In this document: positions 1 through 29,362 of the stretch, one piece after another | How positions within the stretch are numbered: position 1 is the first letter of the stretch | Layout of the letters: every line of letters begins with the position of its first letter | Virus record (IMG/VR): IMGVR_UViG_2671181114_000018 | From: a virus | Taxonomy: Duplodnaviria > Heunggongvirae > Uroviricota > Caudoviricetes | Strand: one strand, 5' to 3' | Length of the DNA stretch: 29,945 bases | Position numbers and translations under genes: made by a program | Notes under the pieces: model-generated | Told to the model about the DNA's origin: nothing | Database searches by the model: none | What the model saw: the letters and a program-made list of their open reading frames with translations, nothing else

Positions 1-1365
1 TTATGGACGGAGGCAATACTCGGCAATTCGAAGCGCTGAAATGTGCTTTTCATGGATCATGTCGTTCCCGCATCCGCATTCATTCTCACATGGTTCTCGC
101 ACCCATACACCATCGCTATTTTTTCGGTAGAACCATCCAGGACGAAAACCTGCGTTCTGCATATACATCCCTGGGTGAACGACAACTAATTCACATACTT
201 CAATCAGGTCAGTCTCATGGCATATGATTCCAATTCCCTTCTGATACACGGCCTGAAAGTCTTTATTGACATGTTTTATTAGTTCATCTATCTCAAAAGC
301 GACGTAATTTTTTCCTTTAAGAAGCCGCTCTATCTTTGGCAAGCGCAATGGAGAATTGTCATTATCTGTACCAAAGAGAATTATGCTGGGTGAACTTATT
401 GTAACGCCGCCTGTTAATTCGCCTCTCATCGTTTCAATAGAGTCAAATAGCTCAGCTATTTTCCCACCACGATAGAAAGCAATACTAGGAGAAACGTTTT
501 TCACATAACTATCATGATATTCAGGTAATTCAAGTGACCGCTTGAATACAGGAATATCTATATTTGGATCCCTTAATTGTTCAACTTCCCGCCAAGGTAA
601 GTCTAATAACTCCTTGAGGATAGGATCCTCCGTAACTGACGGGAATAAGGAATTTGTATCAGTGATTGCATTCAATACGGCATATTGTTTTAAAAGTGAC
701 CGACTAGCTTTTATCTGTGCAATAAAGCAATTTTCTGGAACTGGCTCTCCATATAGCGGCCCTAGTAACCAAGCATCTTGGGCCTGCATTCTGGGTCGGA
801 AACCCTTAATTTCAATATCAGAAAGATCAACCAAACCAAGACGAGATGCTAGTGATTTATCTAGAATGTAGAGATATCCATCTCCATCTTCATAATAATA
901 CCTTACCGCTTTTTTTATCAGCCATATGGGGTTTTCATTACAGTCTTCGCACATGTCTATCTTTGGCGGTGGAGATGGTTTTATTGACAGTGAACATTTA
1001 TGACTCGCAAACCAAGCGGCAACTGCAGGGTTAGTGGTACAGTCAACATAGAATGATCTCCATCCATAGTGTTGTAACAGTGCCTGTACATATTCCAGAT
1101 CGTTTGCATGGCTACCAATTACTCCCTCAAGCACACTTGCAGCATAGCTAATCCACTTTATCATCGTTGACTTGTTACATTCATCGCGATCAAAAGAAGC
1201 AAGTACGGATGGTACCTCCTGCTTACCATAGAGAGAATTTTGACCTCGAAATAATACATTGTCACCAAACTGTGCAATTACAGCTTCCAGCTCACTAATA
1301 GTTCTGACCTCAAATTGTTCCAATTCTTCCCTCTCCCCTGAATTCGCAATCATGGCATCTTGCAC
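1..1365 (-). CDS. Hypothetical accessory protein with N-terminal FRG-like motif and Cys-rich C-terminus (candidate defence/cargo gene)
   Basis: Complete 454-aa ORF (stop = revcomp of nt 1-3). Contains 'VLFRGQNSLYGK' near the N-terminus, which I recall as the FRG domain signature, and Cys clusters (CEDCNENP; PCENECGCGNDMIHEKH). Visibly AT-rich compared with the phage structural genes. Function not known from sequence. Confidence 0.45.
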   Translation of the reverse strand: MQDAMIANSGEREELEQFEVRTISELEAVIAQFGDNVLFRGQNSLYGKQEVPSVLASFDRDECNKSTMIKWISYAASVLEGVIGSHANDLEYVQALLQHYGWRSFYVDCTTNPAVAAWFASHKCSLSIKPSPPPKIDMCEDCNENPIWLIKKAVRYYYEDGDGYLYILDKSLASRLGLVDLSDIEIKGFRPRMQAQDAWLLGPLYGEPVPENCFIAQIKASRSLLKQYAVLNAITDTNSLFPSVTEDPILKELLDLPWREVEQLRDPNIDIPVFKRSLELPEYHDSYVKNVSPSIAFYRGGKIAELFDSIETMRGELTGGVTISSPSIILFGTDNDNSPLRLPKIERLLKGKNYVAFEIDELIKHVNKDFQAVYQKGIGIICHETDLIEVCELVVVHPGMYMQNAGFRPGWFYRKNSDGVWVREPCENECGCGNDMIHEKHISALRIAEYCLRP

Positions 1366-22590: not shown

Positions 22591-23598
22591 TTATTTGCTT
22601 TTATTTCCATCATTATTAGGATGATTTACAGGAGTAAGGCCTGAGGCTACATCATTAGCAGTTTGAAGACTGGTAGGAATCAGACCGGGCCAATTTGCCC
22701 CATTTAGTCCCCAATTGAGTTTAGCTAAATTCTCACCAGGCCAGGTTGATTTCGCAGAATTTAAATCAAGTCCCTGAAGCCCCTGAAGCCCCTGAACCCC
22801 CTGAAACCCCAGAGAACCTAAAGTCGGCCTGGCAAAAGGCAGTGTATTCTTAGATATTTCCTGATTAATATCGTCTAATTTATTTTGATTCGCTATAATT
22901 TTGGCATTCAAATCCATCAATTCTTTTTCTTTTAATTCCAATTCCGTCCTCACCTTCGAAATTGAGTCCATAGCATTATAATAAGAATTGGTAACTGACT
23001 GAACCTCTTTTCCCTTTTCCTTTATTAACTCATTAATATCCCTGAGCTTTACCTGAGCGTTATTATATTTATCTTCAAGCGCGTTTGTATCATATTCGAT
23101 AGCTTTATTTGCCTTTTCAGCATTTAACCTCGCTTTTGCGTCTGCATATTCATACTCGACATTTTTATTTATTTCGTCTATTTTTAAATCAAGAGCACTC
23201 TGTTTTCTCTTACTATCATTTGTACTCTTTTTCGTAAGCACTCCATTTTGTATTACATCAACAACATATGAGATAAAAGGAGTGCCAACTACAAATATAA
23301 TTGAGGCAACAAATGGATACCAAAACGTATGAGTATGAGGGATGCTAATTCCAAAAAAGACACTATTTGATGGTAACGCCTTTATTTTTTCAATACGTTG
23401 TTCTATGTCCAGACTGAACGAGAATAAGAGTAATAGAGTGCGGTCCCAGTTACAGAGAATCCAAGAGGATATGAAGCATAGAAAAAATGGATTTGATAAC
23501 CGTTGATTAACAGCTTTCACTACCGGTTCAGTTGTAACTGATTTTACCGCATCCAAAGCTTTATCTATTGTTTCGCTCATTTTAGGAGTATCAACCAT
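22591..23598 (-). CDS. Accessory membrane-anchored coiled-coil protein with C-terminal collagen-like G-x-Q repeats (candidate superinfection-exclusion/defence cargo)
   Basis: 335-aa ORF (start may be the internal Met 'MSETIDK'). Hydrophobic N-terminal segments ('FFLCFISSWILC', 'VASIIFVVGTPFISYVV'), long K/E-rich heptad region, C-terminal 'GFQGVQGLQGLQGL'. Visibly AT-rich; sits between the replication gene and ogr/portal, the position of tin/old in P2. Confidence 0.5.
   Translation of the reverse strand: MVDTPKMSETIDKALDAVKSVTTEPVVKAVNQRLSNPFFLCFISSWILCNWDRTLLLLFSFSLDIEQRIEKIKALPSNSVFFGISIPHTHTFWYPFVASIIFVVGTPFISYVVDVIQNGVLTKKSTNDSKRKQSALDLKIDEINKNVEYEYADAKARLNAEKANKAIEYDTNALEDKYNNAQVKLRDINELIKEKGKEVQSVTNSYYNAMDSISKVRTELELKEKELMDLNAKIIANQNKLDDINQEISKNTLPFARPTLGSLGFQGVQGLQGLQGLDLNSAKSTWPGENLAKLNWGLNGANWPGLIPTSLQTANDVASGLTPVNHPNNDGNKSK
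22772..22807. repeat. In-frame tandem repeat, 4 units of 9 bp (ccctgaagc x2, ccctgaacc, ccctgaaac) inside the cargo gene
   Basis: Read directly from the plus strand; on the minus strand the units encode the G-L/F/V-Q triplets of the collagen-like tail. Confidence 0.9.
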
Positions 23599-23714: not shown

Positions 23715-26369
23715 TTAATCTCGTTTAAAAATCCAGCATCGGAATGTATCCGGCATCCGTTGCATATCCCCTTTACCACGGTTATGGCGCTCACTAACTG
23801 CGCTGCGCGTGGTGCTTTGTCTGATGAACCGACGTTCATTACCGTTTTTAAGCAGCTTTTTGATTTCCGTTAAAGTGAACGGAATCCGCTGCCGGTGTGC
23901 TGCTGCGACTTCTTCCATATGATTGAAATTAATTGCAATTTCATTTTCATCTGATGAGTGATTGACGCCATAGGGTGCCAGTTCATCCAGGTAATCAAAC
24001 AGTTCCCAAAACTCCTGCACCATCGGGTGATCCTTTTTAAGCGCCTGACAACGTTCAATAGCCAGCGCGGTGATGGCTTCGCGAGTTTTTTCTATGCGTT
24101 CAACCGGTACCGGCACAACAAGCGCAAGCGCCTCCAGCAAACCCACAAGCTGCGCGTGATTCTTTGCAATACGGATATGGCGAATACTACTGTTAGATTC
24201 CAGCGCATTCCTGGCGCGTTCGTATCCCTTACCGAACGTCTGCATGATTTCTTTCTCACGCATGGTGGCCAGTAGTGTGAATCCCGATACCTGGCTAACA
24301 GGGAGTTGTTCCAGCCGCTCCGCAGCGTGGCGCGTCTGAATAGACTGCCCGCGCTTGTCGGTATAGATATGGATAATACGCTCCAGAAACGCCTTGCTGC
24401 CGTCTGTATCAGCGTTCTGCGCAATCACAATACTGCCCCTGAATGGCGGTTCGTATGTTTCGTTATTGTTGGACTTTATCCCCACAGCACGGGAAGCGCG
24501 GCCGTTATACAATGATTTCAGTTCATCCCAGTCAAAAGCACGTTGCTTGGCGTTATCCGTTGTGCGGTCGCCTTCGATTAACACAACCGGCAGGTTGCCG
24601 ACCTGGGCAAAGTTGCGCCCACGCGCTGCGGCCGTGGACTTAGAAGGATCAAAACCTTCATATTCTTCACGGCCGGCGAGCTTCCACAGAAATTCAATCA
24701 GTGTAGATTTACCTGTCCCCGGTTCACCCACGATTTCCAGAAACGGGAATGACTTATCGCGCTCCCGGATTTGTTCGGCAAAAAGCGACCCCAGCCAGAA
24801 TGCTAGCGCCACGTACCCCTTTTCACCAAATGCCGTCCAGATATCGTCAATCCAGCCCGTGGTAAATTCATTCAGCTTTGGATTCAGATCCAGCGATGGT
24901 GTCAGGCTCAGGCTTTTTACACTGGCGTGATTGATTTCAAAATAGTCTTCATCGTTCATCTCATACAGCCGGCCATCGCACACGGCCACACGGTTAAACA
25001 GCCACGCTGAATAATCTTTGTTGTAGCCGATAAAGTTCTGTGTCTTAACCTCTTTTATTTCAGGAAGCCGCATCTGGATGAACTTATCCAGTTGCTTGGT
25101 GCTGCCGGTGTATACCGCCCCTTTGGCGATATGCAGCAAACGTTTCTTAAACTCGGCGGAGCTGGTGAGCTGGTTCGCCGTGAAGGTATCCTTCACCGCT
25201 GGCCGGTTCGGCATGTTGACCTTAACGTAATACCAGGACTCGTCAGTAGGTTCAGAACGCTGGAAATAGAGCGGAGTCAGCCAGCAGTTAGCTATTTCTG
25301 TCACGCCGCCAGATTCTTTCACCGCACGTTCTTTGGCTTCCCAGTCCTGGATAACTTCGGTACCGGTATTACTTATGCGCTCATAGGCTCGCATGTACCT
25401 GTCCAGATCCAGTTCAAACCAGAACATGCGGGAATTATGTTCAAAATAGAACGAATGCCACTCATTATGCTGATGCATGAGCAGCGCTTTTTCAGTCGGA
25501 CTTTTCGCCAGCAGAATATCGCCATAGTAGCGATAATTTTTGATGTCCGATTTACTGAACCGGCCACGCAACAACAAGTCATTCCAGTCCAGACAGGAGG
25601 ATGATTTCACCGGCTGCGCCGCACGAACTTTCCAGCCGGCATCCTCACTACGTGCAGCAAATGCCAGCGTGTGCTTTGTGCCGGCCTTATCGCCGTCAAA
25701 TGCCCATACAAGGCGTGGGCGCGGTTTTTCGCCCAGTTCTTTGGCCAGCGTATCCAGTGCGGCCAGAGGGTAGTTGTTACTGCTCAGTGTGGCAACTGCG
25801 GGTAAACCCGCCTGGCAAAGACTCAGCGCATTAAATATCCCCTCAGTGATCCAGATTTCATTCACTTCCAGCAGGTTGACAGAAGGTGGTACCCACCAAT
25901 GGCCAACATAACTCCCTTTAATATTGGCTTTTTGCTTACCAAAGCGTTGGGGCTGGTCAATAATGCGCTCCCACGTCGCACCACATGCCAGCTTAAATTT
26001 GACTGTTGCCGATCCCATGCCATCTTTAACAAACGCGCCCTGGGTGAAAATGCCTTTCAGTGGTTCGGTATCCAGCCCTCTGGCCTCACGCAGATACGCC
26101 TCAGCAGCTGCGTGTGGGGTTTCAGGAGTGTCCTGATACCGTTTAGACCAGTCCTCAAAAATATCCGGGTACAGCTCTTTAACAACGACCTGATGGCCGC
26201 AGTTATTTTCGCGACCACACTTCAGAATCCAGGGCTTATCTATGCTGGTGAATAATTCGCGCTTACGACACTTAGGGCATACACCCTGCTGCAAATACTT
26301 ATCCCGCTCTTTAAACTCAAAATCCTGAACAAGACGGCGCACAACGTCCTGTTGTATCGTTGCGTTCAT
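23715..26369 (-). CDS. Replicative primase-helicase, P4 alpha-type (zinc-binding primase + D5-like SF3 helicase)
   Basis: Track ORF 23715-26405 (896 aa); probable start 'MNATIQQ' (26369). N-terminal zinc-ribbon Cys pairs (CPKC...CGRENNCGH), Walker A 'GEPGTGKST' in the helicase part; size and domain order resemble P4 alpha. Confidence 0.8.
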   Translation of the reverse strand: MNATIQQDVVRRLVQDFEFKERDKYLQQGVCPKCRKRELFTSIDKPWILKCGRENNCGHQVVVKELYPDIFEDWSKRYQDTPETPHAAAEAYLREARGLDTEPLKGIFTQGAFVKDGMGSATVKFKLACGATWERIIDQPQRFGKQKANIKGSYVGHWWVPPSVNLLEVNEIWITEGIFNALSLCQAGLPAVATLSSNNYPLAALDTLAKELGEKPRPRLVWAFDGDKAGTKHTLAFAARSEDAGWKVRAAQPVKSSSCLDWNDLLLRGRFSKSDIKNYRYYGDILLAKSPTEKALLMHQHNEWHSFYFEHNSRMFWFELDLDRYMRAYERISNTGTEVIQDWEAKERAVKESGGVTEIANCWLTPLYFQRSEPTDESWYYVKVNMPNRPAVKDTFTANQLTSSAEFKKRLLHIAKGAVYTGSTKQLDKFIQMRLPEIKEVKTQNFIGYNKDYSAWLFNRVAVCDGRLYEMNDEDYFEINHASVKSLSLTPSLDLNPKLNEFTTGWIDDIWTAFGEKGYVALAFWLGSLFAEQIRERDKSFPFLEIVGEPGTGKSTLIEFLWKLAGREEYEGFDPSKSTAAARGRNFAQVGNLPVVLIEGDRTTDNAKQRAFDWDELKSLYNGRASRAVGIKSNNNETYEPPFRGSIVIAQNADTDGSKAFLERIIHIYTDKRGQSIQTRHAAERLEQLPVSQVSGFTLLATMREKEIMQTFGKGYERARNALESNSSIRHIRIAKNHAQLVGLLEALALVVPVPVERIEKTREAITALAIERCQALKKDHPMVQEFWELFDYLDELAPYGVNHSSDENEIAINFNHMEEVAAAHRQRIPFTLTEIKKLLKNGNERRFIRQSTTRSAVSERHNRGKGDMQRMPDTFRCWIFKRD

Positions 26370-26408
26370 ATATAATCCATGTGTGAAATGATGAATAAAA
26401 GGCAAAAA

Positions 26409-26627
26409 CTATATTCTGTACTGCTTGTTATATCTTTCATGCGTCATTAACTCCCAGCTTCTGCCCTTATCCTTACTAAGCAAACGCCAGCGATAGGAGA
26501 CATGAACAGAGAAATAATGATTTGGTTTTATAACCTGATATATCTTTTTGCCGTTGTAATATTCTGTCAGCGCTGAAAATGCCTTGTTAATGACACTTTC
26601 ACTTGCATGAGAGGTCACTTTCAGCAT
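26409..26627 (-). CDS. Hypothetical early protein
   Basis: 72-aa ORF immediately upstream of the primase-helicase gene in the same operon; AT-rich; no motif recognised. Confidence 0.35.
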   Translation of the reverse strand: MLKVTSHASESVINKAFSALTEYYNGKKIYQVIKPNHYFSVHVSYRWRLLSKDKGRSWELMTHERYNKQYRI

Positions 26628-26629
26628 AG

Positions 26630-27199
26630 TTATTTCACACTGGCTATTTTAACGAGATAAGTCCAGACGTAAGACACTAGTTTAGCCTGATAAATAGCGT
26701 CATATAGTGCATGGTGCGGTGTACCTTCAAATTTAATAATATTTTTGATGTTCAAACCTAAATCTTTGGCCAGCGCATTTATCGTCCTGACATCCCGGTC
26801 ATTCCAGTAATTCCACATCGGGCTTAACAAGCCTACCTTATTTGCAGCATGGCGGAGGATAACGTTATCAAACGACGCTCCATTACCCCAAACCTGTAAA
26901 TGATGTGCATCAGTGAGTTCACTGATAAAGTGGAAAAGGTCAGAAATGGCCGTATCCAGCGGACAATTCGCATCATTAATAATCTCGCTCCTTGCTTCGG
27001 AGGACTGACGCAGCCACCACAGAACTGTATCGGCTCCCATAGTGCAGTCGTAATCAACGCTACTTGCAAGACTGACACGGCGATAGAAAGTTTCCCCCAT
27101 TTCACCCGTTTCCGGATTAAATAATACAGCGCCAATAGCGGTAATTGCTGCCGTTGGTTTGTTATCCATTGTTTCAAGATCAATCATTAAATGTTTCAT
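26630..27199 (-). CDS. 3'-5' exonuclease (DnaQ-like fold)
   Basis: 189 aa beginning 'MKHLMIDLETMDNKPTAAITAIGAV...', an Exo I-type motif (D-x-E); later 'HHALYDA' resembles the Exo III motif. Common in P2-like early operons. Confidence 0.65.
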   Translation of the reverse strand: MKHLMIDLETMDNKPTAAITAIGAVLFNPETGEMGETFYRRVSLASSVDYDCTMGADTVLWWLRQSSEARSEIINDANCPLDTAISDLFHFISELTDAHHLQVWGNGASFDNVILRHAANKVGLLSPMWNYWNDRDVRTINALAKDLGLNIKNIIKFEGTPHHALYDAIYQAKLVSYVWTYLVKIASVK

Positions 27200-27208
27200 A
27201 TCGGTTCC

Positions 27209-27544
27209 TTAACGTTGGGAAGCTGCAACAGGTTTTAGATGGGAGTTATTTATTCTTAATGCGTTAGTCGCCAGAGACATAAGACCTGAAATATTGTTTT
27301 CGGTTGGGATGTTTCCACCGAACACCATAAGCGTGATTTTATGAAGTTCCTCAAAATCTTCACTGTCATTATTAAAACGAGCAGTAGAGGTTATACCTTC
27401 AAGACATTTTGCAAGCTGAATGTTTAATTCCATTAACTGCAAACCATCGCTATGAACAGAGAACGTTTCTTTATCAATGGCTTTAGCCTGAGCGTGATAA
27501 TTTTGCAACAGGCTGCGTATGAGAGTCGCGTATTTAGTTTTCAT
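27209..27544 (-). CDS. Hypothetical early protein
   Basis: Track ORF 27209-27577; likely start at internal Met 'MKTKYATLIR' (27544), just after the cox stop. No motif recognised. Confidence 0.35.
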   Translation of the reverse strand: MKTKYATLIRSLLQNYHAQAKAIDKETFSVHSDGLQLMELNIQLAKCLEGITSTARFNNDSEDFEELHKITLMVFGGNIPTENNISGLMSLATNALRINNSHLKPVAASQR

Positions 27545-27816
27545 CGTGGTTCTCCCAAACCCAGCCACATTAACCACCCATCCCTAATTTCCTTCGGGCG
27601 GCTCTCATACGCTAATTTCATTCCGTTGTTCCAAGCAGGAAGATAAATCCAATATTCTCCAGCTCGACCAGAGGTGGATTGCGGGTCTGTCATTTCAACA
27701 ATAGGTAATTTCCCTTTTTCAATCATCCCCTTTACAGCTCGCTCCGATTTTCCAATGAGCCGAGCGAATTCCTGATAGGGGACAGCATCGCTGGTTAGAA
27801 CAATTTGCTTAGTCAT
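27541..27816 (-). CDS. cox: Cox-like excisionase / early-promoter regulator
   Basis: 91 aa, first gene of the early operon, divergent from C. Length and sequence closely resemble P2 Cox as I recall it ('...IPYQEFAKLIGKS...GRAGEYW.YLPAWNNG...'). From memory. Confidence 0.75.
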   Translation of the reverse strand: MTKQIVLTSDAVPYQEFARLIGKSERAVKGMIEKGKLPIVEMTDPQSTSGRAGEYWIYLPAWNNGMKLAYESRPKEIRDGWLMWLGLGEPR

Positions 27817-27933
27817 TTCAAGCCCTCTCGCGGTTCTGAAATTGCCTTTAATGGCTTATAGTGTCCTCTGATGTTCAGTTTTAAACATCAAACAATCTAC
27901 ATCTAAATCAAATACTATTGAGATCTAAACACC
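27817..27933. promoter_or_regulatory. Immunity switch region between cox and C (early and repressor promoters with operator-like repeats)
   Basis: 117-bp AT-rich intergenic region between divergent genes. Direct repeats ATCTAAA at 27901-27907 and 27923-27929 (22-bp spacing) and palindrome tgatgtt-N8-aacatca (27869-27890). Promoter elements not individually assigned. Confidence 0.5.
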
Positions 27934-28233
27934 ATGTCAAACACGATAGGCGAAAAAATAGTACTAATTAGAAAGTCTGAATACCTAAGTCGACAGCAAC
28001 TAGCTGATATATCTGGCATTCCTTATGGGACTCTTAGTTATTACGAAAGCGGTCGTTCTACCCCTCCGACTGACGTTATGATGAAAATCCTCCAAACACC
28101 GCAGTTCACTAAATACACCCTATGGTTTATGACTGACCAAATCTCGCCAGAATCCGGTCAGATCGCGCCGGCTCTCGCACACTTTGGGCAAGATGCAACA
28201 ACCTCGCAGCCCTCAGACCAAAAGACTGGCTAA
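27934..28233 (+). CDS. C: Immunity repressor C (P2 C-type)
   Basis: 99 aa; 'MSNTIGEKIVLIRKSEYLSRQQLADISGIPYGTLSYYESGRSTPPTDVMMKILQTPQFTKYTLWFMTDQISPESGQIAPALAHFGQ' is near-identical to P2 C as I recall it, same length. Confidence 0.9.
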   Translation: MSNTIGEKIVLIRKSEYLSRQQLADISGIPYGTLSYYESGRSTPPTDVMMKILQTPQFTKYTLWFMTDQISPESGQIAPALAHFGQDATTSQPSDQKTG

Positions 28234-28348
28234 CCATTTACCGCGAATACATGCACCACAAGTGCATGCTACTGGCAGCTAAATTTTGCACCAGACATTA
28301 CAAAGAGTTAGGAACGAGAAGAGAACGAACCCATCGGAGGGCTTTCTT

Positions 28349-29362
28349 ATGACAGTTAAGAAACTCGATGATGGTCGGTATGAAGTGGATATCAGACCTG
28401 CCGGGCGCAACGGAAAGCGCATCCGCAGGAAGTTCGACAAAAAAAGCGAGGCTATCGCTTTCGAAAAACACACGCAGTACAACCACCACAACAAAGAATG
28501 GCTTTCGAAGCCGACAGACAAGCGGCGTCTGTCAGAGCTAACGGCTATATGGTGGGAGTTGAAAGGAAAGCACGAGGAACACGGAAAATCTAATCTTGGG
28601 AAAATTGAAATATTTACCCGGATAACTGATGACCCCTGTGCGTTCCAGATAACGAAAGCACTTATCAGCCAGTACAGCGCTACCCGCAGAAGCCAGGGTA
28701 TAAAGCCATCAAGCATTAACCGGGATTTAACCTGCATAAGTGGCATGTTCACCGCATTAATTGAGGCTGAATTGTTCTTCGGTGATCACCCGATACGCGG
28801 TACGAAAAGACTGAAAGAACAGAAGCCGGAAACCGGCTATCTGACACAGGATGAAATTAGCTTGTTGCTTTCGCAACTGGACGGAGACAACAAGAAGATT
28901 GCGATTCTTTGTCTTAGTACCGGCGCAAGATGGGGTGAAGCCGCGCGGCTGAAAGCGGAGAACGTGATCCATAACCGCTGTACGTTTGTTAAAACCAAAA
29001 CGAACAAACCACGCACTGTGCCAATTTCTGACGAGGTGGCAAATATGATCGCCAACAACAAGCGAGGCTTTCTTTTTCCGGATGCAAACTATCCAGCATT
29101 CAGACGGTTGATGAAGGAACTGAAACCTGATCTTCCGGCCGGACAAGCAACCCACGCATTGCGTCACAGCTTCGCAACCCATTTCATGATTAACGGTGGG
29201 AGCATCATCACGCTGCAACGTATCCTTGGCCATTCGCGAATTGAGCAAACTATGGTCTACGCACACTTTGCCCCGGAATACTTGCAGGACGCGATCGCCC
29301 TCAATCCGTTACGTGGAGGAATTGAGGTTCAGAGTGTCCACACAGTGTCCACAGACGAGTAA
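28349..29362 (+). CDS. int: Tyrosine integrase (P2 Int-type)
   Basis: Track ORF starts at 28286 with TTG; real start is Met 'MTVKKLDDGRYEVDIRPAGRNGKRIRRKF' at 28349 with GGAGGG upstream. Catalytic C-terminal 'HALRHSFATHFMINGGSIITLQRILGHSRIEQTMVYAHF' (R..H-x-x-R...Y). Downstream of C as in P2. Confidence 0.9.
   Translation: MTVKKLDDGRYEVDIRPAGRNGKRIRRKFDKKSEAIAFEKHTQYNHHNKEWLSKPTDKRRLSELTAIWWELKGKHEEHGKSNLGKIEIFTRITDDPCAFQITKALISQYSATRRSQGIKPSSINRDLTCISGMFTALIEAELFFGDHPIRGTKRLKEQKPETGYLTQDEISLLLSQLDGDNKKIAILCLSTGARWGEAARLKAENVIHNRCTFVKTKTNKPRTVPISDEVANMIANNKRGFLFPDANYPAFRRLMKELKPDLPAGQATHALRHSFATHFMINGGSIITLQRILGHSRIEQTMVYAHFAPEYLQDAIALNPLRGGIEVQSVHTVSTDE

Follow-up and report, generated by a model that had tools for sequence, protein, structure and literature searches.

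The mRNA interferases of the RelE superfamily, among them YafQ, HigB, YoeB, RelE and RelK, are toxins with two N-terminal helices, encoded in autoregulated two-gene loci with the antitoxin gene adjacent. T4 RegB is an early-phage endoribonuclease of RelE/YoeB fold that inactivates mRNAs and has no known antitoxin (PMC3014915), whilst the HigB-like protein SehA of Salmonella, which is not an RNase, inhibits RNase III and shows that the fold can block ribosome production by means other than nucleolysis, Y91 of its C-terminal motif being required for toxicity (PMC12817084). In phages P2 and 186 the position between cox/apl and the replicase gene is occupied by small, dispensable early genes (fil, dhr, orf80-83 and, in 186, an exonuclease-like gene), which in some cases are host-directed. 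Here we describe two small genes in this same position, ORF72 and ORF111 (72 and 111 amino acids (aa) respectively), which lie either side of an exonuclease gene in the early operon of a P2-like (Peduoviridae) prophage. The prophage is held in a stretch of 29,945 nucleotides (nt), IMG/VR record IMGVR_UViG_2671181114_000018, hereafter the window, the right end of which abuts Escherichia coli yegR at 99% identity. ORF72 is a solo toxin-fold gene, for which T4 RegB is the closest functional analogy as a protein of this kind made in lytic growth, and ORF111, as judged from its sequence, belongs to a narrow, lineage-restricted orphan family. RegB differs from ORF72 in its length of 153 aa, its extra N-terminal helix, its two catalytic histidines and its origin in a virulent phage, and there is no sequence relation between the two. 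By hhalign, no sequence relationship of any of these P2/186 early genes to ORF72 or ORF111 was detected.

Both open reading frames (ORFs) are real genes and not chance ORFs. The original prediction had placed two small AT-rich ORFs beside the exonuclease gene, with coordinates (Table 1) and lengths that proved exact, and the GC content of each is 38.4%, compared with 50.1% for the window. Conservation across relatives, which had been proposed as a check, was found for both, with strong purifying selection: 43 homologue clusters were found for ORF111 and 23 close ones for ORF72, whose wider family comprises 465 clusters at 90% identity. Ratios of nonsynonymous to synonymous divergence (dN/dS) against orthologues in other enterobacterial prophages were 0.02-0.12 for ORF111 and 0.06-0.16 for ORF72, and the synonymous sites of ORF111 were near saturation (dS 0.9-2.2), with amino acid identity still at 93-95% where dS was above 1. 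All 43 homologues of ORF111 begin MKxKY, and the start of the gene is therefore the ATG at 27544 rather than an upstream GTG. When the stretch 26350-27950 was compared with 5,426 complete E. coli genomes, none had a coverage of 80% or more, despite the E. coli host flank; the best alignments span 75% of it (ORF72 through ORF111) at ~80% identity, and a near-identical copy is carried by IMG/VR contig IMGVR_UViG_2636415848_000011.

It had also been stated that neither ORF has a recognisable motif. This holds for ORF111, which has no Pfam, NCBIfam or PADLOC match, and does not hold for ORF72, which covers positions 2-67 of the 67 of PF24732 (ParE_like) with 60.9 bits against a gathering cutoff of 24.4; NCBIfam and PADLOC scans gave no match for ORF72. 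PF24732 was matched by all 12 diverse ORF72 relatives tested, relatives in E. coli (~80% DNA identity) are labelled 'ParE family toxin-like protein' by the Prokaryotic Genome Annotation Pipeline (PGAP), and PF24732-type annotation is also found on relatives in Salmonella, Klebsiella and others. The PF24732/PHROG 1525 family is itself defined only by sequence and predicted fold. Its members are uniformly small (mostly 70-90 aa), and the 123 examined were single-domain proteins with a median isoelectric point (pI) of 10.4, the pI of ORF72 being 9.9. An AlphaFold2 model of ORF72 built from 24 sequences, with a predicted local distance difference test score (pLDDT) of 90, consists of a strand (residues 2-4), a helix (10-24), four strands and a C-terminal helix (63-70), i.e. 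a beta-alpha-beta4-alpha arrangement. In a Foldseek search of this model against the PDB, ~40 of the top 50 matches were RelE/ParE-superfamily toxins, including Vibrio cholerae and E. coli YafQ, Proteus vulgaris HigB, YoeB, RelK, HP0894 and GraT, with probabilities of up to 0.97 and template modelling (TM) scores of 0.5-0.6. Canonical ParE chains were absent from these 50 matches, one chain being labelled 'YoeB/ParE', and the predicted shape is closest to the translation-targeting branch of the superfamily (YafQ, HigB and YoeB), with which ORF72 also shares its basic charge.

The pattern WRLLS..G..W.L..HE.YN is kept in at least 90% of 118 family sequences, the residues conserved family-wide in ORF72 are W47, R48, L49, L50, S51, G55, W58, H63, E64 and Y66, and four of these, R48, H63, E64 and Y66, which lie at the last strand and the C-terminal helix, show little or no variation. 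RelE-type RNases keep catalytic residues at this location, an example of an mRNA-interferase catalytic set being E46/R65/H83/Y84 of YoeB, and it is here that ORF72 has a conserved Arg, His and Tyr. The segment WELMTHERYN of ORF72 resembles REVMTHKEYD of E. coli HigB (PDB 5IFG, sequence verified), with MTHERYN aligned to MTHKEYD, and a decayed copy of ORF72 in a Klebsiella prophage has lost exactly this C-terminal part. SehA belongs to the same HigB-type branch and needs the Tyr (Y91) of its C-terminal motif. It is paired with a cognate antitoxin and, at ~100 aa, is homologous to HigB over the full length; its homology to ORF72 is confined to the short motif. Residues 51-58 of ORF72 (~26454-26477) form an invariant S-K-D-x-G-x-x-W, a beta-hairpin motif of the Asp-box/BNR type, which drew weak BNR and sialidase matches in PDB and Pfam searches; sequence-profile searches of the PDB with the ORF72 family returned chance or Asp-box matches only.

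Members of the ORF72 family were found in 61 phage records and in no fewer than 587 IMG/VR contigs. The family occurs in Toprim-primase Peduoviridae of Evevirus-like type (the window, ESSI2_ev239 and Salmonella pheA prophages), in Peduoviridae with a P2 A-type nickase (Reipivirus, Irrigatiovirus SI7, and prophages of Hafnia and Serratia), in the virulent Sortsnevirus and Murrayvirus as well as Serratia and Yersinia phages, and in integrative and conjugative elements (ICEs) of the SPI-7/ICEclc/SGI4 type, where homologues (33-48% identical) lie directly after bisC (DUF2857) and before the gene for the STY4528 replication protein. The gene upstream varies and may be the exonuclease, a Dam methylase, BisC/DUF2857 or a small ORF without Pfam match, and in no examined context, i.e. 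Peduoviridae with different replicases, Sortsnevirus, Murrayvirus, the Serratia and Yersinia phages and the ICEs, was an antitoxin-type domain (ribbon-helix-helix, helix-turn-helix, Phd/YefM or AbrB) found next to the gene. Because the upstream neighbours vary and none carries an antitoxin-type domain, we regard ORF72 as a solo toxin-fold gene; an adjacent, co-transcribed antitoxin gene with a DNA-binding domain, the criterion for a type II toxin-antitoxin (TA) system, does not accompany it. The exonuclease was considered as the antitoxin and rejected, as it is replaced by a methylase, BisC or small ORFs in other contexts, and an obligate partnership of ORF72 with the Toprim primase was likewise rejected, given that the phiCTX and RSY1 primases have unrelated ORFs upstream and that GPA-type phages carry ParE_like genes. 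Transfer competence of ICEs is switched on by BisDC, its master activator (PMC7423338), so the PF24732 gene of the ICEs stands, as in the phage, in an operon expressed only in the activated state; the two settings differ in their neighbours and in the type of element, and the ICE operon has no exonuclease or ORF111-like gene. ICE examples were found in Xenorhabdus, Pantoea, Photorhabdus and Salmonella SGI4 (our loci L009, L012, L069, L152 and L153), the genes often overlap their neighbours by start and stop codons, and the paper on ICEclc regulation makes no mention of a small PF24732 gene after bisC (PMC7423338).

The names given to the family by Pfam and PGAP would suggest a ParE-type gyrase poison, which might block host replication or topology during lytic growth as Dhr does in phage 186. 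The position of the gene is in keeping with this, since it lies directly upstream of replication genes both in the phage (Toprim primase) and in the ICEs (STY4528), a host-replication inhibitor is encoded in the same operon of phage 186, and ORF72 co-varies in sequence most with the primase. We nevertheless consider such a role improbable: the top 50 structural matches represent the ribosome-dependent RNase branch without canonical ParE, and the adjacency is not general, a Dam methylase separating the ORF72 homologue from the replicase in GPA-type Peduoviridae. ParE typically has a longer C-terminal region, for which the 72 aa of ORF72 leave no counterpart. The co-variation with the primase fits simple linkage, and Dhr of 186 is unrelated to ORF72 in sequence.

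The genes belong to the regulatory region of the prophage, at 23.7-29.4 kb of the window (Table 1), where a Pe-like early promoter in the position of Pe in the annotated P2 record faces cox, next to the divergent gene for the C-type immunity repressor. On the minus strand the order is Pe, cox, ORF111, the DEDDh exonuclease, ORF72 and the Toprim primase/helicase, the last of these 41-47% identical to the primases of phiCTX and RSY1, and no terminator-like site was found on this strand between Pe and the primase gene. The expectation that a temperate phage carries these two as small accessory genes in its early lytic operon was thus borne out, the operon being the Pe operon of a P2-like phage. 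The stop codon of cox and the ATG of ORF111 overlap as ATGA with a GGGAGAA Shine-Dalgarno sequence upstream of ORF111, 9 nt separate ORF111 from the exonuclease gene downstream, and the ATG of ORF72 lies 2 nt past the exonuclease stop without an evident Shine-Dalgarno sequence. An Rfam scan of 26000-28400 found no RNA family at E values of up to 1. The C repressor silences the early operon in the lysogen, and ORF72 and ORF111 are made only after derepression or infection.

Table 1. Features of the prophage regulatory region and of candidate cargo genes, with positions in the 29,945-nt window.
Feature	Position	Strand	Basis and remarks
FRG-domain ORF	1-1365	-	cut by window edge; PF08867 1e-7; PADLOC candidate system PDC-S15 3.7e-9
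335-aa AT-rich ORF	22591-23598	-	between primase gene and ogr/portal; region GC 37-44%; weak PADLOC LmuB-like matches, E 5e-5
Toprim primase/helicase replicase, 884 aa	23715..26369	-	phiCTX orf37 type; last early gene; Toprim_2/3 + DUF5906; phrog_1139
ORF72, 72 aa, minimal protein with predicted RelE/ParE-superfamily toxin fold	26409..26627	-	PF24732 1.1e-16; phrog_1525 1.9e-32
DEDDh 3'-5' exonuclease, Rv2179c-like, 189 aa	26630..27199	-	PF16473 1.7e-72; phrog_255
ORF111, 111 aa, lineage-restricted protein, predicted helical	27209..27544	-	ATG 27544, stop 27209; phrog_7058 1.4e-43
cox, 91 aa	27541..27816	-	first early-operon gene; PF10743 4.5e-43
Pe-like early promoter	27912..27940	-	TTGACA, 17 nt, TAGTAT; faces cox; next to divergent C repressor gene
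C-type immunity repressor, 99 aa, HTH_3	27934..28233	+	PF01381 1.6e-8; phrog_147 1e-39
Integrase	28286-29362	+	within regulatory region

ORF111 matches positions 1-105 of the 110 of PHROG 7058, a family without annotated function, and weakly PHROG 2549. When 1.84 billion representative proteins were searched exhaustively by profile, only four clusters (50% identity) were returned at E values of 1e-10 or below, together with two spurious long proteins, and among 50,697 phage records ORF111 was found only in ESSI2_ev239. A protein of 125 aa encoded in the early operon of Reipivirus is distantly related to ORF111 (hhalign probability 91%, E 1e-6), and hhalign gave no further relation to ORF111 or ORF72 among the small early ORFs of P2, 186, phiCTX, RSY1, SI7 and Reipivirus; DUF5405, Dhr, Fil, P2 B and phiCTX orf36 were examined as candidates and are unrelated to either by hhalign. 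The AlphaFold2 model of ORF111 (pLDDT 72) is a three-helix bundle formed by residues 3-26, 30-57 and 61-74, with a tail predicted to be disordered from residue 91, and the pI of the protein is 5.8.

In order to see how often the genes occur together, we used two samples, the first being 28 primase-anchored IMG/VR loci in which the upstream region is intact and the second the best 80 loci anchored on ParE_like, which stem from few related lineages and whose counts are not independent. In the primase-anchored sample ORF111 was present in 27 of 28 loci, the exonuclease in 27 and ORF72 in 26. In the ParE_like-anchored sample an exonuclease gene ended within 60 nt upstream in 50 of 80 loci and an ORF111-like gene was present in 51; 45 loci had the two together, 5 had just the exonuclease, 6 had just the ORF111-like gene and 24 had neither. 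The trio of ORF111-like gene, exonuclease and ORF72 recurs with both replicase types. Natural variants nevertheless miss one or all three of these genes: ORF72 alone is missing from relative L054, which keeps ORF111 and the exonuclease, all three are missing from L056 (IMGVR_UViG_2576861453_000001), in which the primase is kept at 87% identity, and in the Klebsiella prophage L023 the exonuclease has decayed to 136 aa and ORF72 to 54 aa without its HE.Y end, the primase being intact. All three genes are therefore dispensable and accessory. Positions 1000-2100 of L056 represent a wholly different, minimal early region with a repressor, two small ORFs (63 and 71 aa) and no cox.

This pattern bears on two possible partners of ORF111. 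As a small helical partner of the DEDDh exonuclease, ORF111 would stabilize or direct the enzyme in the manner in which theta (HolE) and P1 HOT bind epsilon. The ORF111 gene lies directly upstream of the exonuclease gene at a distance of only 9 nt, the two co-occur strongly in ParE_like loci (45/5/6/24), and L054 keeps this pair without ORF72. The predicted ~75-aa core of ORF111 is a three-helix bundle, and theta is of the same size class. We think this an unlikely role, as neither HolE nor HOT is among the 50 best Foldseek PDB matches of ORF111, its alleles recombine freely with exonuclease alleles that are 41-99% identical, and in L023 it is intact and under purifying selection beside a decayed exonuclease; moreover, the co-occurrence counts stem from few related lineages. 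Alternatively, ORF111 could be an antitoxin-like neutralizer of ORF72, the two forming a split TA pair into which the exonuclease gene has been inserted. A helical N-terminal domain followed by a disordered C-terminal tail is the usual build of a type II antitoxin, ORF72 is strongly basic and the pI of ORF111 is 5.8, ORF111-like genes occur in 51 of the 80 ParE_like viral loci with two replicase types, and ORF111 outlasts decayed or deleted ORF72, the direction allowed for an antitoxin. Set against this, ~20 intact ParE_like loci, the virulent phages and all ICEs are without an ORF111-like or antitoxin-type neighbour, ORF111 has no signature of a DNA-binding domain, the co-variation of ORF111 and ORF72 is at linkage level (r 0.27) and their genes are not adjacent. 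Both are also co-repressed by C, which leaves no addiction logic, and of the alternatives considered here we give this one the least credence.

The identities to the window copies were 57-97% for ORF111, 40-99% for the exonuclease and 72-100% for ORF72, and since they vary in nearly all combinations, the three genes behave as separate recombination cassettes. Mantel correlations were 0.65 for ORF72 and primase, 0.46 for exonuclease and ORF72, and 0.27 both for ORF111 and exonuclease and for ORF111 and ORF72. No gene of the early module varies nearly as much as that of the exonuclease, with a mean pairwise distance of 0.38 and identities as low as ~40%; in the window and in relatives L001-L007 and L031-L059 it is flanked by far better conserved genes, as would be seen if recombination had exchanged whole alleles. 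An RNA-degradation pair of endonuclease and exonuclease seemed unlikely, because RelE-type cleavage yields 2',3'-cyclic phosphate ends and these should not be substrates for a 3'-5' DEDDh exonuclease.

Small, AT-rich, dispensable proteins that assort as mosaic early-operon cassettes are also what would be expected of anti-defence or anti-restriction factors acting early in infection, and ORF111, ORF72 or both may be such factors. ParE_like genes are found in accessory-gene clusters of virulent phages as well, and the accompanying DEDDh exonuclease might in principle break down signals or effectors made of nucleic acid. The probability that we attach to this is low, as no similarity to an annotated anti-defence protein was found in the PDB, BFVD, PHROG annotations or the literature, there was no PADLOC match, and literature searches on Rv2179c with anti-defence found nothing relevant. 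ORF111 is furthermore extremely constrained and near-universal in its lineage (27/28), in contrast to typical anti-defence genes, which are fast-evolving and patchy, and the operon that holds the ORF72 homologues of ICEs is a regulatory/replication one.

Two further ORFs of the window lie outside the early operon. The 335-aa ORF downstream of the primase gene, in the position of the P2 tin/old cargo hotspot, has no Pfam match and is a candidate for anti-phage defence cargo, and the FRG-domain ORF at the left end of the window, which is AT-rich (40% GC), may be cargo of the second hotspot.

The explanation that we favour, tentatively and at somewhat less than an even chance, is that ORF72 is a translation- or RNA-directed solo toxin whose translation is coupled to that of the exonuclease, with ORF111 as a binding adaptor. 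With the early operon repressed by C, ORF72 and ORF111 would be produced once the prophage is derepressed or on infection, ORF72 presumably being translated by coupling to the upstream exonuclease gene. ORF72 might then attack translation or RNA processing, of the host or of the early phage, probably by ribosome-associated mRNA cleavage or by binding an RNA-processing factor, and would act via its conserved basic surface and the R48/H63-E64-x-Y66 motif. Because the operon is silent until commitment to lysis or, in ICEs, to transfer, ORF72 would need no antitoxin, the cell being already committed to lysis as with T4 RegB. ORF111, which forms a recurrent, dispensable accessory set with the exonuclease and ORF72, would most likely not be an enzyme but would bind proteins as an adaptor or modulator. 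The original prediction of a host-directed role is plausible for ORF72 given its predicted toxin fold.

A number of results weigh against this explanation. The Foldseek E values for ORF72 are weak (0.03-0.3), its model has one N-terminal helix where canonical toxins have two, and hhalign of the family against YoeB, RelE, YafQ, RK2 ParE and HigB gave nothing significant, the best single-toxin profile alignment being that with HigB (E 0.006 over 10 columns, not significant); of the toxin sequences compared, only that of HigB was verified against the PDB. The position matching the catalytic Glu of YoeB (E46) varies in the ORF72 family, and the conserved S-x-D-x-G-x-x-W is probably structural rather than catalytic, because it resembles an Asp-box hairpin. 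HigB-like proteins need not be RNases, since SehA is not one, and as SehA inhibits RNase III the fold of ORF72 predicts a translation or RNA target better than a specific chemistry (PMC12817084). Literature searches found no paper on PF24732 or on 'ParE family toxin-like' proteins and no assayed member. For ORF111, Foldseek found no relatives (best E 0.5 against the PDB and 0.4 against BFVD) and the best E value of a PDB sequence search was 0.31, and it is intact in Klebsiella L023, where the exonuclease and ORF72 have decayed. A special co-evolution of ORF111, exonuclease and ORF72 was rejected, the Mantel correlations simply falling with gene distance.

Several of these points would also suit a non-toxic, toxin-derived scaffold, with ORF72 serving as a regulatory or replication accessory of the activation operons of mobile elements. 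No antitoxin was found and yet the family is stable in at least 587 IMG/VR contigs and many ICEs, the fold is reduced to a single N-terminal helix, the conserved motif consists in large part of a structural Asp-box hairpin, and SehA shows that the fold can act through protein binding. The invariant H-E-x-Y, R48 and the very basic surface point instead to a nucleic-acid or active-site function, and the tight repression in both phage and ICE settings is what a harmful product would require, so that a scaffold role seems to us rather unlikely.

We hold with high confidence that ORF72 and ORF111 are real genes of the early operon, that ORF72 is a member of PF24732 with a RelE/ParE-like predicted fold and no antitoxin, and that the genes are accessory. 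PF24732 was already catalogued and PHROG 7058 was listed without annotation, and ORF72 and ORF111 add members to them. What is modestly new is that ORF72 is consistently antitoxin-less, in activated-state operons of phages and ICEs, and that it is repeatedly accompanied by a DEDDh exonuclease and an ORF111-like gene. A more far-reaching proposal is that the ORF111-like gene, the Rv2179c-type DEDDh exonuclease and the solo ParE_like gene form an unrecognized three-gene accessory module of Peduoviridae early operons, mobile between unrelated replicases, whose toxin-fold part in the ICE bisDC operon would be a general antitoxin-less effector of the activated state, reprogramming or disabling host RNA metabolism or translation, or countering RNA-based defence. 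This is speculative, and we think it unlikely to hold. Nothing in these findings overturns current understanding, and they are in that sense fairly ordinary. ORF111 stands out as a highly constrained orphan without a homologue in P2 or 186, the experimentally characterized reference phages compared. If ORF72 is an active toxin, temperate phages and ICEs would make wide use of RelE/ParE-fold proteins as effectors that have no antitoxin, curbed only by the element's own repressor and switched on at commitment to lysis or transfer. Such logic would be unlike that of addiction modules, would bear on how P2-like phages shut down their hosts and would call for caution in labelling prophage genes of this kind as 'toxin-antitoxin systems'.

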